Origin: a virus
DNA: 64,000 bases
Direction: 5' to 3' (one strand)
Virus record (IMG/VR): IMGVR_UViG_3300042553_000685
The notes under the pieces: generated by a model
Databases searched by the model: none
Told to the model about the DNA's origin: nothing
What the model saw: only the letters and a program-made list of their open reading frames with translations
In this document: positions 38,209 to 47,375 of the stretch, in pieces
Layout: every line of letters begins with the position of its first letter
Numbering within the stretch: position 1 is the stretch's first letter
Translations under genes and position numbers: made by a program

Positions 38209-38260
38209 GGGCCTGCGGGCCCCTTTTTCCTTCTGGTGAATTTTAATCCTAGGAGGATAC
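38209..38260 (+). promoter_or_regulatory. Early cassette A (hairpin + TTTTTCC-TTCTGGTGA...TTTTAATCCTAGGAGG)
   Basis: gggcctgcgggccc ctttttccttctggtgaattttaatcctaggaggatac ATG(38261). Confidence 0.6.
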
Positions 38261-38599
38261 ATGATCTACAAACATTTGCCACGAGAATTTGACTACGCCT
38301 ACCGTGGTCATACTCACACCGACCTCGATTGGGGTCGGTGTGGCGAAGTTCTTTACGCCAGCCGCAGTCTGGCAGTGGCCAAGGACTTCGCTCGTGGAGG
38401 GCATGGGGCTGTGCTCATTCTCGCCTTCGACGGCGACGTCGAAGGCGACCGACCTTGGTGGTACGTAGAGGATGACCCCTCCTACTACGACGAAGTAGTC
38501 CTTCCGACCAGACTATGCGTCTGGTCTAAGTTAGTAATATTCGGCGGTGAGATCATCGCCGAACCAGTGATTAACTGGAACCCAGGTTATACCAAGTAA
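38261..38599 (+). CDS. Early protein, unknown; weak R-S-E (ADP-ribosyltransferase-like) motif pattern
   Basis: 112 codons with a cassette and SD upstream. YAYRGHT ... LYASRSLAVAKDF ... YYDEVVLP occur in ART-like order. Confidence 0.6.
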   Translation: MIYKHLPREFDYAYRGHTHTDLDWGRCGEVLYASRSLAVAKDFARGGHGAVLILAFDGDVEGDRPWWYVEDDPSYYDEVVLPTRLCVWSKLVIFGGEIIAEPVINWNPGYTK

Positions 38600-38613
38600 C
38601 CTGGGGTAATTTA

Positions 38614-38669
38614 GGGAGTGTAATGCTCCCTTTTTCCTCGTAGTGAACCTTATCTCTAAGGAGGAGATT
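38614..38669 (+). promoter_or_regulatory. Early cassette B
   Basis: gggagtgtaatgctccc tttttcctcgtagtgaaccttatctctaaggaggagatt ATG(38670). Confidence 0.6.
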
Positions 38670-45200: not shown

Positions 45201-47297
45201 AAGAGAGGCTGCACCTATACTCCTGAGGGTGCGCTTCTCACCATCGATGCTACTGGTGAAGTTATTGATCTTATGACTAAGAGTAATACCTTTACTGAGT
45301 GGGCTCGAGCCAACAGTGTTAAAGAGGTCATCTCTTTTAATATGGCCCGCGACCTGTGGGATTCCATCTCCTCCGTAGTAACTAACGATGACATCAAGGT
45401 AATCGACATCGACGATACCAGCGTCCGTATCGAAGAAACAGTAGAGGTTATATACGGCTATCTGCCGTATGATATCGAGATAGCCACTCCTCGTGAGTCC
45501 GTAGCATTCTCCAAAATGACTATGGAACAGGTGGGTATTGTGGCTCTACAGAACCGCTCTTGGGGCGAAGCACTCATGGAGGAGGTTAAGTACGATAACG
45601 TCATGTCCATAGTTAGTATGATCACGTCTAAAAACTGTGCTGCTCACATTAACATCAGCACTACTGAGGGGCGTGACCATCTACGGAACATTATCGGCGT
45701 AGTTAACAACTACGTTTCTGATAGCACCCCCGGCAGTGACCGCAAACTGCTAGAGCGTTTTGCTACCATCTATCCAGATGGAGTGGATATCGTTGCCCAG
45801 AATAACGGTAATGAGGTCTCTCTTCATATCAATGGTAAGGCCCTAAGCGCGTTCGGTACCTTCTCTGGCGCCTCCGCTACTGGTATTATGCTAGACCTCT
45901 TGACACTGTTGGCCTACGTTACTGATGTAGGAATTGAAGACCAAAGCGGTTTGGATAGTAAAATCTACTCCATGACCGCTAAGGTCAGCCGCGGTTTACG
46001 CACATGGTGTAACACCATGGTTAAATCCAAAAGCATTCTGAAAAGTATGGCCCGCGCTGGCGATGTGGTCGTTGGTAAGGTCAAGACCAGCTATAGCCCC
46101 TTGCTCCATAGCTCTGATGGCGTGCCTGTAATTCTCATGCACCCCGATTGCCCTATGGTGCGTATGCTTGGCATCGAAGAAGGTCAGGTTATTGGGATAC
46201 AACGGACTCCTATGGGCTTCGTCCTATGCGGCCGCGTTAAGTTCTCTGCTACTGATGCCTTTATCGCACACTACACAATCAACCCTCTCCTATGGCACGC
46301 CGTTAACGAAGGCGATGCTGATGGTGACCAGTGCGGCGGCATTAATGCTCACAAGTATAGCATCGATGCTGAGAGTGCCCTCACTATCAATGCTAGTCTC
46401 ATGGGCATGGGCGGCTACTTCTACTGCTACGAAGCAGATGACCTGCCGTTCTTCGCCTTCATGAGTTATGAAGATAAGATGGGCAAGAAATCCCTCACTA
46501 AGTGGGATAAGCCTGTAGCTACTGCTATCGCTGTTGATAAGTATGTAAGCGATGCTGCTGAAGTGCACACGCATTATAAAGTAGCCGTAGGTGTCGGCTA
46601 CGGCATCTGCTCCGCACTTGCCTTCCAGACCTGGGATAGTATGTACCGCGCTAGCGGCGTCGATACCGACGCACTTAAAGCATGTGTTATCGCTTGGCGT
46701 TTCGTTTATGAAAGCATGGGTCTCGGGGGCTATACCCCTGAGGCTAAGATCTTCATGGCTACCTTAGTGCAAGCAGCTCGCGCCTGGGCTGCTGGCGTAT
46801 CTATGTATAAGTCGTTGCAAGACGGGTTATACTACTCTGCCAACTCCACTAAGCTTGCGGATACGGATCGCCAGGGAGGTAGTGTACCTCCTGCTCGGGT
46901 TATGGCTAACCTTATGCCTGCTAAACTAGCTAAGGAGCCCGCGGTAATCTACCATCTTATAAAGGCCCGCGCCCGTACTCTCACATACGGCGCTCTCGAA
47001 CGGGGCAACTTCGCTCGCAAGAGCCTTATCATGTCATCTGCCATATACGGAGCCTTCCGTCGTACTGGCCAGGGTCATGATCCTGTGGTTCCTATGACTC
47101 AGGATGACGCGGCCAGTTATGGCGCTGATGATATCGTCCCCGTTAGTGTGTTCGACATGGTAAGTGAGTTCCAACTCTCTAACTATGTCAAGAACCCTCA
47201 ACTCAAGCAGCTGTTGGAAATCGCAACTGCTGTACATCTCGATCTCGGTGACTACAAACTAGAACTCGCTGAAGCTGAAGATCATCCTGATTTCTAA
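42216..47297 (+). CDS. 1,693-aa protein: Arg-rich N-terminus + HExxH + beta-prime-like double-psi-barrel motif (DADGDQ)
   Basis: Uninterrupted ORF. I prefer ATG 42216 (MNTINSIVFQ) after cassette I. HELVH is at 42984-42998. IQRTPMGFV...TINPLLWHAVNEGDADGDQCGGINAH is at 46197-46352. E. coli beta-prime, for comparison, has NRAPTLHRLG...[21 protein letters not shown]. Confidence 0.85.
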   Translation: MNTINSIVFQSNVLVASIGAVIANTRVTTRRVGPGRRAQQIASRRANRVVRRRSRRIASAGRPIRSLPQSQRPCVVKSARRTLRRAAAATVLAARKPVLRNRNVVDKLILRQRKAKPIMRAVSAVFARPSRPTNTGTGTKAVATVVNNAAGSIIAALDQGRLNYRGNGRTCVGKKYKTKNAKAVLAIAKAAKATDKAARVKRCMSVVVPELPSDVLACRMRVVGKLCGVTFVQGDIASYCDNVVTIPSFEDIYAITHELVHHCQALGLTEDLDIALVSEAAIGAGSAQWHDTKSFYEGTEHENDEYEAALLMYDPALVARLLCTHYLMTAFVESGAPGPDDTWMDVVDSLDPAICREVVGLDDRVLDYKTYGEYAEAVGYDDTNTLLDWEFVFNNSVNNDNAVALTIQAIDGLIGAAPAAVTPTHPLSNIGAPTKGLESDSSSNNTTNTSTTMKSIIEMLIPDPSTLGGAVSPKQEARITGARKELTRLFGANNFDLLPEGPILYVVSGYNRMCKKFLALLDHRVVYTTDSKMNPKVINLGVTKSIPYEDDKHTYTTKTECLVSMYSEHFLTKLATWSGDDLAALVGCLCIKQHRIVSVEGPCVVIKGNNRNTTFNFSTGTVNDGRQSRIANELVKVGGKDYSGRVALVALCMKVVYNATGARAILNEVTNLWREDINYGAQPKEGQSLFEINRCMSRPVVFKPWDKAFPFLQVENVGLAPSDLELSLKAGVIAAPDKYNSKWIAVGKGAKAMFLGLKDSKIYSIHDFSKPTKVYNRPPSSGKYTRAEVVGRHDSLLRVDLGDGSYSCGGGLYLRTAFTNSRFGFGSGVAAIRRDLEFEYTVPKTITKEFHVLRIPSEVRALMAADLDDPMSKLMEVIEGKIEKAKGQVYAPGNPIISIMRGKYCIVKNETFAQDIRVIGGTVTRNGVEGRADSVTIRLETEMVGRDQALKLRGLGKKLTTLPYDVEGLSQPWDIILNNETTKGWPALIEMFAIEKRGCTYTPEGALLTIDATGEVIDLMTKSNTFTEWARANSVKEVISFNMARDLWDSISSVVTNDDIKVIDIDDTSVRIEETVEVIYGYLPYDIEIATPRESVAFSKMTMEQVGIVALQNRSWGEALMEEVKYDNVMSIVSMITSKNCAAHINISTTEGRDHLRNIIGVVNNYVSDSTPGSDRKLLERFATIYPDGVDIVAQNNGNEVSLHINGKALSAFGTFSGASATGIMLDLLTLLAYVTDVGIEDQSGLDSKIYSMTAKVSRGLRTWCNTMVKSKSILKSMARAGDVVVGKVKTSYSPLLHSSDGVPVILMHPDCPMVRMLGIEEGQVIGIQRTPMGFVLCGRVKFSATDAFIAHYTINPLLWHAVNEGDADGDQCGGINAHKYSIDAESALTINASLMGMGGYFYCYEADDLPFFAFMSYEDKMGKKSLTKWDKPVATAIAVDKYVSDAAEVHTHYKVAVGVGYGICSALAFQTWDSMYRASGVDTDALKACVIAWRFVYESMGLGGYTPEAKIFMATLVQAARAWAAGVSMYKSLQDGLYYSANSTKLADTDRQGGSVPPARVMANLMPAKLAKEPAVIYHLIKARARTLTYGALERGNFARKSLIMSSAIYGAFRRTGQGHDPVVPMTQDDAASYGADDIVPVSVFDMVSEFQLSNYVKNPQLKQLLEIATAVHLDLGDYKLELAEAEDHPDF

Positions 47298-47304
47298 TTA
47301 CAAT

Positions 47305-47375
47305 GGGGTCATATGACCCCTGGGGCCACCTGGCCCCTTTTTCTTTTAGTGGAGCTCTTTACTCCATATGATAGG
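47305..47375 (+). promoter_or_regulatory. Early cassette J (double hairpin; no ORF follows)
   Basis: ggggtcatatgacccc t ggggccacctggcccc tttttcttttagtggagctctttactccatatgatagg. It lacks SD/ATG and leads into the repeat region. Confidence 0.5.

Follow-up and report, generated by a model that had tools for sequence, protein, structure and literature searches.

The locus described here raises the question of why one intergenic unit should recur gene after gene in a single short part of a viral genome. The window analysed, 64,000 nucleotides (nt) of the IMG/VR virus record IMGVR_UViG_3300042553_000685, carries between positions 38,209 and 47,375 ten copies of a cassette made of a GC-rich hairpin, a run of T's and a conserved box around the motif TAGTG. 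In the original prediction, these boxes were taken for compact promoters of a dedicated polymerase. With some reserve, we consider it probable that the cassettes are intergenic insulators of ~55 nt that bound every gene of a hyperplastic, unidirectional accessory array in a Fukuivirus. The GC-rich stem-loop and the T-run, whose form is evident, would stop transcription arriving from the previous gene. The end of the U-tract and the pyrimidine box (UUCCUUCUAG, or a version ending in CUGG) would then act as the anti-Shine–Dalgarno strand of a second hairpin (HP2). Its 3′ strand is the strong Shine–Dalgarno (SD) sequence of the next gene (CUAGGAGG or CCAGGAGG). Read-through RNA would thus carry a masked ribosome site; pairing and covariation are seen in silico, and the effect on translation is what they suggest. 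The ~20-nt invariant core would in addition provide homology for inserting, deleting, duplicating and transposing gene modules, and the corresponding junctions are found between genomes. Finally, transcription would probably re-initiate between the arms of HP2, as at T4 gene e. Such a start would give a 12–18-nt leader with a free SD, and only locally started mRNAs would be translatable; TAGTG(A), conserved where the 5′ arm ends, would be a candidate promoter element at the −10 position for either host or phage polymerase. The cassette would then be a testable design that keeps a fast-evolving accessory array harmless by transcriptional and translational insulation, while offering homology for shuffling.

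From its sequence, the window is a Microcystis myovirus of the Ma-LMM01/MaMV type (Fukuivirus). The part between 38 and 48 kb matches MaMV-CH01, -CH02, -DH01, -DL01/02, MaMV-DC and Ma-LMM01 at 87–90% identity in reverse orientation. In Ma-LMM01, the counterpart of the cassette region is gp067–gp064, followed by annotated 42-bp repeats and then by gp063–gp054. In the infection transcriptome of Ma-LMM01, gp063–gp054 formed the sole early gene cluster and gp064–gp067 were classed as ‘middle’; SigA-like promoters were predicted with BPROM, and no phage-specific motif was reported (Morimoto et al. 2018, PMC5780444). For the cassettes, five genomes were compared, namely the window, MaMV-CH01, Ma-LMM01, MaMV-DC and MaMV-DH01.

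How far does the cassette family extend? With a weight matrix of 23 nt, covering the 3′ stem arm, the T-run and CCTTCTAGTGA, both strands of the window were scanned. All ten copies of the original prediction were recovered at 24–36 bits, all on the + strand, with TAGTG anchors at 38234, 38641, 39027, 39227, 39424, 40120, 40335, 41391, 42191 and 47347. Beyond these sites no position of the window exceeded 8 bits; in fifty shuffles the mean maximum was 10 bits and the highest 20.7. A weaker variant proposed ahead of an ATG at 21151 scored below 8 bits, lies inside an annotated giant open reading frame (ORF) that starts at 21079, and is not a family member. Spacing within the units is tight. The T-run starts 8–10 nt before TAGTG in the window and 8–11 nt before it across the five genomes. 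The distance from TAGTG to the ATG, described at first as nearly constant at about 30 nt, is indeed 25–30 nt in the window and 25–32 nt in most copies of the five genomes. An exception is the nominal 23 nt at an orphan copy (DH01 31021 / DC 9362), after which there is no SD-preceded gene, only a nominal 49-codon ORF.

In the complete Ma-LMM01 genome (162 kb) exactly seven copies are present, on one strand at 43.7–51.3 kb and all in gp067–gp064, and the homologous arrays of MaMV-CH01, MaMV-DC and MaMV-DH01 hold 9, 12 and 16 copies, with none outside. About 11 IMG/VR contigs have 2–4 clustered same-strand copies each, and a pattern scan of 185,579 prokaryote genomes gave only single chance matches among the matches listed. 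The layout is one cassette ahead of every ORF plus one extra after the last ORF. By this distribution, the cassette is a local element of one 4–13 kb array and not a genome-wide class of promoter or terminator.

Within the window, the array opens with cassette 1 (38209–38260), in which the first hairpin (HP1) occupies 38209–38222, the T-run begins at 38224, TGGTG stands at 38234, and HP2 (38228–38257) pairs the box with the SD ahead of the ATG at 38261. Cassette 2 spans 38613–38669 (HP1 38613–38631, TAGTG 38641, HP2 38633–38667, next ATG 38670). Cassette 3 at 39003–39055 (HP1 39003–39017, TAGTG 39027, next ATG 39056) forms a weak box:SD duplex of −5.5 kcal/mol, and in cassette 4 at 39196–39253 (HP1 39196–39218, TAGTG 39227, next ATG 39254) HP2 at 39220–39251 has ten consecutive base pairs of UUCCUUCUAG with CUAGGAGGGA. 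Next come cassette 5 at 39394–39451 (HP1 39394–39415, TAGTA 39424, HP2 39420–39445, next ATG 39452), which contains a perfect TATAAT, and cassette 6 at 40094–40149 with a weak HP1 (40094–40114; TAGTG 40120, HP2 40115–40142, next ATG 40150). In cassette 7 at 40306–40361 (HP1 40306–40325, TGGTG 40335, HP2 40329–40358, next ATG 40362), the TGG of the box pairs with the CCA of CCCAGGAGG.

The last three cassettes depart from the claim that every unit has an SD; it is of the CCTAGGAGG type in seven of the ten and absent at 41391, 42191 and 47347. Cassette 8 at 41367–41419 (weak HP1 41367–41379, TAGTA 41391, next ATG 41420) has neither SD nor HP2, and its core is identical in all five genomes. Cassette 9 at 42163–42215 (HP1 42163–42181, TAGTG 42191, next ATG 42216) precedes an RNA polymerase gene; its HP2 at 42190–42213 pairs UUAGUGG with CCACUAA. 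The array ends with cassette 10 at 47305–47375, where two tandem hairpins (47305–47320 and 47322–47337) are followed by a T-run, TAGTG at 47347 and a small hairpin at 47349–47367. As the original prediction had it, no ORF comes after this cassette, which leads into a repeat region, and it is conserved in all five genomes.

What, then, is conserved in the cassette? For its anatomy, 29 representatives were compared, any two of which have more than 6 differences over 74 positions. The 5′ hairpin arm, the loop and the upper stem have a low information content; it reaches 1–1.9 bits per position in a core from −14 to +5 around TAGTG that reads CCCCTTTTTCCTTCTAGTGA, and is moderate downstream. HP1 has a mean folding free energy (dG) of −10.6 kcal/mol, compared with −3.9 in control 30-mers. 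Stems are 4–7 bp and loops 3–8 nt long, one degenerate copy aside. The 29 representatives show 18 different stems, all of which keep the three G-C pairs at the base, and compensatory changes are found in the upper pairs (GC, CG, AT, TA, GU/GT). Four to six T's begin 0–3 nt past the stem in 28 of the 29, HP1 starts 6–15 nt past most upstream stop codons, and most units were flagged by a terminator scan. Some of the hairpins, at −14 to −16 kcal/mol and with five T's, are strong terminator forms. HP1 and the T-run thus have the canonical form of an intrinsic (Rho-independent) terminator, conserved as structure and not as sequence; stem energies, compensatory pairs and T-run agree with what had been suggested for the hairpin at the outset.

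An intrinsic terminator does not account for the ~25 nt of conservation that had been noted downstream. When the whole cassette was folded, a second hairpin appeared that had not been seen before. In it, the core part CCTTCTAG pairs with the SD region of the next gene, CTAGGAGG; more precisely, the last U's of the T-run and CCUUCUAG pair with CUAGGAGG(GA). When the segment between T-run and ATG was folded, 75% or more of the SD was base-paired in the predicted minimum free energy structure of 22 of the 23 representatives that have an SD. Folds of this segment have a mean dG of −9.1 and a mean z of −2.4 in the cassettes, whereas 28 non-array genes of the window gave −4.3 and −0.4. Array genes have strong GGAGG SD sequences; of the 28 non-array genes of at least 100 amino acids (aa) in the window, only ten have an SD-like 4-mer 2–12 nt before the start.

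Box and SD also covary: a TGG box is matched by CCAGG, a TAG box by CTAGG, and CCTTTTAG by CTAGAAGG. Because the MAFFT alignment placed five SDs one column out of register, a permutation test on duplex energies was used in place of alignment-based pair counting. The mean box/SD duplex was −10.09 kcal/mol for cognate and −8.95 kcal/mol for non-cognate partners, and one of 20,000 partner permutations reached the cognate mean. A conserved U-G pair in HP2 (CCUUC against GGAGG) points to RNA rather than to a DNA palindrome. We hence infer that UUCCUUCUAG is the anti-SD strand of HP2, which would mask the SD of the next gene in read-through RNA. As the SD is fixed by the 16S rRNA, its complement, the box, is fixed too, and much of the conserved sequence past the terminator would be explained by this pairing. 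The T at +3 and the G at +4 of TAGTG still lack an explanation of this kind. Pairing of the HP1 loop with downstream sequence into a pseudoknot, as in a distant relative discussed below, was not seen when the window cassettes were checked by eye.

Ribosome-site masking by an upstream strand has a precedent in the leader hairpins of T4 genes e, soc, 49 and I-TevI, which have their promoter at the 5′ strand (PMC3014915). There, as in the cassettes, the SD is buried in a helix with an upstream strand, and therefore transcripts from upstream would be translationally silent. In the cassettes, however, the 5′ strand overlaps the U-tract of a terminator, and the design occurs at most genes of an array and not, as in T4, at single genes.

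Several observations weigh against the insulator as we describe it. Every cassette function is inferred from sequence. T+3 and G+4 of TAGTG lie at the edge of the HP2 loop in SD-bearing cassettes and are unexplained by pairing. The cassettes at 41391 (gp065), at 42191 in most genomes (gp064) and at 47347 have no SD, yet the box is kept. The covariation counts come from related sequences, in which about three independent compensatory events are visible. The first cassette has a full terminator, yet no co-directional gene precedes it in the window. No promoter consensus is recognisable, and re-initiation thus has no sequence support beyond the residual conservation.

Do the cassettes also shape gene content? 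The order of modules differs between the genomes: B, G, C, C, D, A, H, E, F in the window, where F is the polymerase gene; B, G, C, D, H, A, E, F in MaMV-CH01; B, L, D, A, E, F in Ma-LMM01; B, C, D, A, A697, I, J, K, A, E, F in MaMV-DC; and M, A, B, G, C, D, H, A, A695, I, J, K, A, E, F in MaMV-DH01. Where the window and its relatives are homologous in the array, most blocks end at −60 to +43 nt relative to a TAGTG. Modules A and H stand in opposite order in the window and MaMV-CH01, with junctions of the swap at −13, −16 and +5, and identical cassette 3′ halves are joined to unrelated ORFs from one genome to another. The sites at which related phages have been rearranged thus fall inside cassettes, with exceptions at two places that count against a strict role of the cassettes in shuffling. 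Block ends at 41121 and 41144–41164, in a degenerate remnant, stand at −227 to −270 nt relative to TAGTG; within ORF E, another at 42043 stands at −148 nt. The remnant itself (41121–41253, + strand) consists of a cassette 3′ half (ttctaggaggtaaattc) and a 5′-truncated duplicate of the ORF at 40150–40299 (module A) and looks like the scar of a cassette-mediated duplication and deletion.

A unidirectional array with one repeat per ORF plus one extra, gene content that varies between genomes with junctions in the repeats, and transposase genes elsewhere in Ma-LMM01 might also suggest that hairpin and core form a site for site-specific recombination, of the integron attC or IS200/IS605-end type. 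Integron attC sites are imperfect palindromes with a GTTRRRY core and an adjacent integrase. The cassette hairpins are short, perfect, GC-rich, variable in sequence and followed by a T-run, with the core given above, and so are not attC-like. No integrase or recombinase gene lies beside the array in any of six genomes compared, and the junctions are consistent with plain homologous exchange in ~20 nt of identity. We thus consider a dedicated recombination site extremely improbable.

Among known systems, the closest resemblance of the insulator cassettes is to the promoter-early stem-loop (PeSL) units of T4-type phages (Arbiol et al. 2010, PMC2839356; Comeau et al. 2014, PMC4122927). These too are small composite intergenic units, present in many copies in hyperplastic regions directly upstream of ORFans; they run from an upstream stop codon over a stem-loop terminator or attenuator and gene-start signals to SD and ATG, and indel, duplication and swap junctions between close relatives are located in them. 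PeSLs, however, feature a strong consensus sigma70 −35/−10, and none fits the Fukuivirus cassettes. Further differences are the fixed order of terminator, T-run, box and SD in the latter, the pairing of the box with the SD, and the confinement to one array that ends in a phage RNA polymerase (RNAP) gene, in a phage that is not of the T4 type. Morons of lambdoid phages are accessory genes with their own promoter and terminator, inserted singly and with unrelated signals. Array and morons have in common accessory ORFs that come with transcription signals of their own on both sides and that differ from one related genome to the next; in Fukuivirus, though, one conserved cassette family punctuates the whole array. 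If our reading is correct, modular shuffling of the PeSL type would extend beyond T4-type phages to an ecologically important group of phages of bloom cyanobacteria, and cassette-flanked slots would be possible natural insertion sites for phage engineering.

If transcription is stopped in each cassette, where does it start again? A sigma70 scan of 36–50 kb gave 17 matches against 18.5 expected and none at a cassette, which agrees with the earlier failure to fit −35 and −10 elements at normal spacing. The TAnAA-like box that had been described as part of the unit is inconsistent: TAnnnT occurs in only 12 of 28 representatives, compared with 27–30% in controls. TATAAT at a match of at least 5/6 is present in 9 of 28, compared with 9–13% in controls, and is perfect at 39424. 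The end of the TATAAT-like box is 9–20 nt from the ATG, and 10–14 nt where the match is at least 5/6. These matches, together with the assignment of all Ma-LMM01 expression classes to host SigA-like promoters (PMC5780444), would favour a host SigA promoter that has no −35 and uses a TAnAAT-like box between TAGTG and the SD as its −10. We regard such a promoter as very unlikely because a start ~7 nt past the box would fall in or after the SD and delete the conserved ribosome site. TAnnnT is moreover inconstant, the sigma70 scan found nothing at the cassettes, and BPROM left gp064 and gp065 without a promoter and assigned unrelated sequences to gp066 and gp067 (PMC5780444). Four other ideas were dropped, unsupported by the copies: TAG/TGA as stop-codon traps, complementarity of GUGAUC to the 16S 3′ end, a CRP-like GTGA half-site, and an antisense T7-like TCACTA box.

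Published expression data bear on the same question. For gp067, gp066, gp065 and gp064 of Ma-LMM01, log2 FPKM (fragments per kilobase of transcript per million mapped reads) were 7.9, 6.8, 6.6 and 7.5 at 3 h and 8.2, 8.4, 7.3 and 8.1 at 6 h (PMC5780444, Table S3). These gene-level RNA sequencing (RNA-seq) values show no polarity from gp067 to gp064 despite five terminator-form hairpins between them. Either transcription starts anew in each cassette or the polymerase passes the hairpins. A cassette-internal promoter is plausible because array expression is non-polar and the conservation of GTG(A) has found no explanation. Non-polar expression would be accounted for just as well if the hairpins failed to stop the polymerase of the array, which is a further point against insulation. 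In that alternative, the cassettes would be terminator plus ribosome-site hairpin with no promoter, and the array would be read through from one upstream promoter, the hairpins being ignored or antiterminated and serving mainly to stabilise or process mRNA 3′ ends and as recombination homology. Uniform low expression from gp067 to gp064, the absence of a promoter consensus from the cassettes, and the orphan cassettes (47347; DC 9362, DH01 31021), which retain hairpin, T-run and box, would be in agreement with it. But the masked SD on a sole transcript would leave the genes untranslated unless the hairpins were opened, upstream of the first cassette the window has nothing to terminate, and the hairpins of −14 to −16 kcal/mol with their five T's are strong terminator forms. 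We hence assume that read-through of the whole array is unlikely.

As for timing, array genes at 1 h were expressed like middle genes and ~30-fold less than the early cluster, rose by 3.8–5.9 log2 units from 1 h to 3 h as compared with ~4 for early and ~8 for middle genes, and were the weakest expressed among the non-silent genes (PMC5780444). The published timing neither supports nor excludes an early role of the array.

Which polymerase might start inside a cassette? The last gene of the array (42216–47297, + strand), homologous to gp064, encodes 1693 aa with the signature QRTPMGF...NPLLWHAVNEGDADGDQ and DADGD at aa 1367–1371 (from nt 46314). An exhaustive HMMER search retrieved 156 cluster representatives related to this protein, and K351, K358, K383, R730, P732, D767, D769, G770 and D771 are invariant in 32 homologues of 19–38% identity. 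An AlphaFold2 (AF2) model built on the alignment of the 32 homologues reached a predicted local distance difference test (pLDDT) score of 89.8 and a predicted template modelling (pTM) score of 0.88. In a Foldseek search of the PDB with the model, the 50 best matches were all RNAP β/Rpb2-type or β′ chains (cellular, plastid or vaccinia), with E of 6e-4 to 2e-2 and probability up to 1.0. Their global TM score was only ~0.15, as expected, because only the core is shared with known RNAPs. The protein had no Pfam or PDB sequence match, and a profile of the 32 homologues also found nothing among PDB sequences. On the basis of invariant motifs, AF2 model and Foldseek matches, the product is, as modelled, a single-chain two-barrel RNAP. 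Of the two phage DxDGD proteins put forward earlier as polymerases, this one is thus corroborated. We found no paper linking Microcystis phages to a two-barrel RNAP in a literature search, and the polymerase gene at the array end is previously unrecognised. Ma-LMM01-type phages thus encode at least one RNAP of their own, in contrast to the published dependence of all expression classes on host SigA, and it must be asked anew how the temporal programme of these phages runs while host transcription stays as it is.

The second DxDGD protein is the product of the giant ORF (21079–31767, + strand; 3562 aa), a gp080 homologue next to structural genes. It has a β′-like signature QRSPPPG...LLNPISFITSNLGDFDGD (QRSP...NP...DFDGD) at aa 2537 (nt 28687) and is an RNAP candidate by motif. 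BLASTP and hhalign aligned only its DFDGD motif, hhalign over 24 columns. It shows no relation to the ~3200-aa proteins that match the gp064 profile, a search for homologues retrieved nothing, and its single-sequence AF2 model (pLDDT 38.6) was unusable. It can be called a candidate virion RNAP, which leaves this half of the earlier proposal unconfirmed. No T7-like RNAP was found among the proteins scanned with general Pfam, PHROGs and PDB searches.

The idea that the boxes are promoters for a dedicated polymerase is thus still alive because the phage encodes its own polymerase, but it is not established. In this alternative, the core would be mainly a compact promoter for a phage RNAP, either the giant virion protein or the gp064 type, and the array its private regulon, comparable to the early genes of the N4 virion RNAP or the pre-early genes of the P23-45 one. 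We treat this as a possible, though clearly less than probable, explanation. The two-barrel RNAP at the array end and the second protein with its QRSP...NP...DFDGD signature are in agreement with it, as are the misfit of any sigma70 promoter, array expression devoid of polarity, a 1–3 h rise closer to that of early than of middle genes, and the conservation of T+3/G+4 with no pairing role. On the other side, SD pairing accounts for much of the conservation, the motif does not occur beyond one array, array genes have the lowest expression of all non-silent genes and are far below the early cluster at 1 h, and the giant ORF is a polymerase candidate by motif only.

Hairpin promoters of the N4 kind, which had been invoked as a model, do not match the cassettes. 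N4 promoters have 5–7-bp stems, 3-nt loops, specific bases and no T-run and serve a T7-like virion RNAP, and promoters of the T7 type serve T7-like single-subunit RNAPs and occur genome-wide. The cassettes resemble them in that a phage with a polymerase of its own has a hairpin, or a conserved block of ~20 nt, ahead of genes. In the cassettes, stems and loops vary and a T-run follows the stem; the Fukuivirus RNAP is of the two-barrel type, and the motif is restricted to the array.

A nearer parallel is Thermus phage P23-45, whose virion RNAP (vRNAP) transcribes a local pre-early array that includes the gene for the non-virion RNAP; a 26-nt motif is common to seven terminators in the vRNAP-transcribed left end (PMC10770324). 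A local array of small genes, conserved sequence at terminators and an included gene for a non-virion two-barrel RNAP are shared with Fukuivirus, and this regulon lends the phage-RNAP promoter some support. The motifs themselves have no detectable sequence relation, the Fukuivirus virion polymerase is a candidate at motif level, and in the published RNA-seq of Ma-LMM01 the earliest class does not include the array genes. Transcript ends and starts were mapped in P23-45 by ONT-cappable-seq and chromatin immunoprecipitation sequencing, and in T4 the late promoter was mapped in the 5′-strand region, whereas the starts and ends proposed for the Fukuivirus cassettes are predictions from sequence.

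One may extend the P23-45 and N4 parallels to a polymerase cascade. The array would be the private regulon of a two-barrel RNAP, possibly the virion-borne 3562-aa DFDGD protein, with TAGTG(A) as promoter; terminator and SD-masking hairpin may ensure that only cassette-initiated transcripts are made and translated, and the gp064-type polymerase may then drive the ‘early’ cluster beyond the repeat region. We offer this cascade as a speculation, and a rather doubtful one. If true, the same architecture in relatives of 30–37% identity would indicate a widespread and unrecognised phage transcription strategy.

Two such relatives were compared. On the JGI metagenome contig Ga0565165_005789124 (L018; 2700–7900), the gene for an RNAP homologue of 30% identity comes after ~15 small co-directional ORFs with spacers of 70–95 nt. 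These spacers contain a repeated structured element unlike the Fukuivirus box in sequence and devoid of a T-run. One type has a TGTCGT/ACGACA stem whose loop pairs with sequence past a conserved TTAAATAAGT; the other has an AGAC/GTCT stem and a conserved linker TTTAAAC. Both pairings covary, so that the elements look like pseudoknots, and G-poor, TCACTA-rich leaders follow them. The second relative, Logan contig SRR30872624_40506 (L019; 1–12607; 37% identity), has two tandem paralogous pairs of a gene for 328–362 aa and one for a ~1400-aa RNAP homologue, at 70–77% nucleotide identity. Every spacer there contains a conserved GGGCTGT...ACAGCCC hairpin and seven T's, and tandem repeats of 40–60 nt lie at 11671–11830 after the second RNAP gene. 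Tandem repeats are found downstream of the polymerase gene in both relatives. Since array, structured spacers, polymerase and repeats are kept, the layout would be older than the Fukuivirus box. That polymerases of this kind also end small-gene arrays with structured spacers elsewhere is in favour of a phage-RNAP promoter; that the box is conserved in neither relative speaks against it. Searches of IMG/VR for related loci with the RNAP profile or with P0011 returned only close relatives or nothing.

The accessory genes that the cassettes bound are small. Between 38261 and 42157, eight accessory ORFs follow each other on the + strand, beginning with one of 112 aa at 38261–38599. A variable ORF of 107 aa at 38670–38993 matches the Pfam family STIV_B116-like (E 4.6e-11), a domain first described in an archaeal virus. 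It is followed by two 44-aa paralogues (39056–39190 and 39254–39388) and by ORFs of 171 aa (39452–39967), 49 aa (40150–40299), 252 aa (40362–41120) and 245 aa (41420–42157). Pfam, PHROGs and PDB sequence searches with the proteins of the array and the two giant ORFs gave, besides the one STIV_B116-like match, nothing but family-specific PHROGs of unknown function, and an Rfam search at E ≤ 1 over 37.5–48.6 kb gave no match.

Between the last cassette and the homologue of the early cluster, which starts at 47799, lies a region of imperfect repeats (47380–47798, + strand) that contain TAGCCACTCCCCAACGGAGG and correspond to the annotated 42-bp repeats of Ma-LMM01. The −10 box GGATATAACC assigned to the first early gene (PMC5780444) sits in the last unit of these repeats. 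Tandem Repeats Finder did not detect the imperfect repeats at 47380–47760.

Just upstream of the first cassette, in and beside the 5′ end of the divergent gene on the endolysin side, two segments of ~70 nt each (37934–38003 and 38044–38113) cross-match each other's counterparts in all relatives, which suggests a direct repeat 110 nt apart. Within the array, the spacers at 39968–40093 and 41254–41300 are unusually long and, while neither has a T-run, both contain extra long inverted repeats, ttacatagacgctaagtgcatctatgtaa near 40050–40085 and gggcccgtctctac...agaggcgggccc at 41260–41300.

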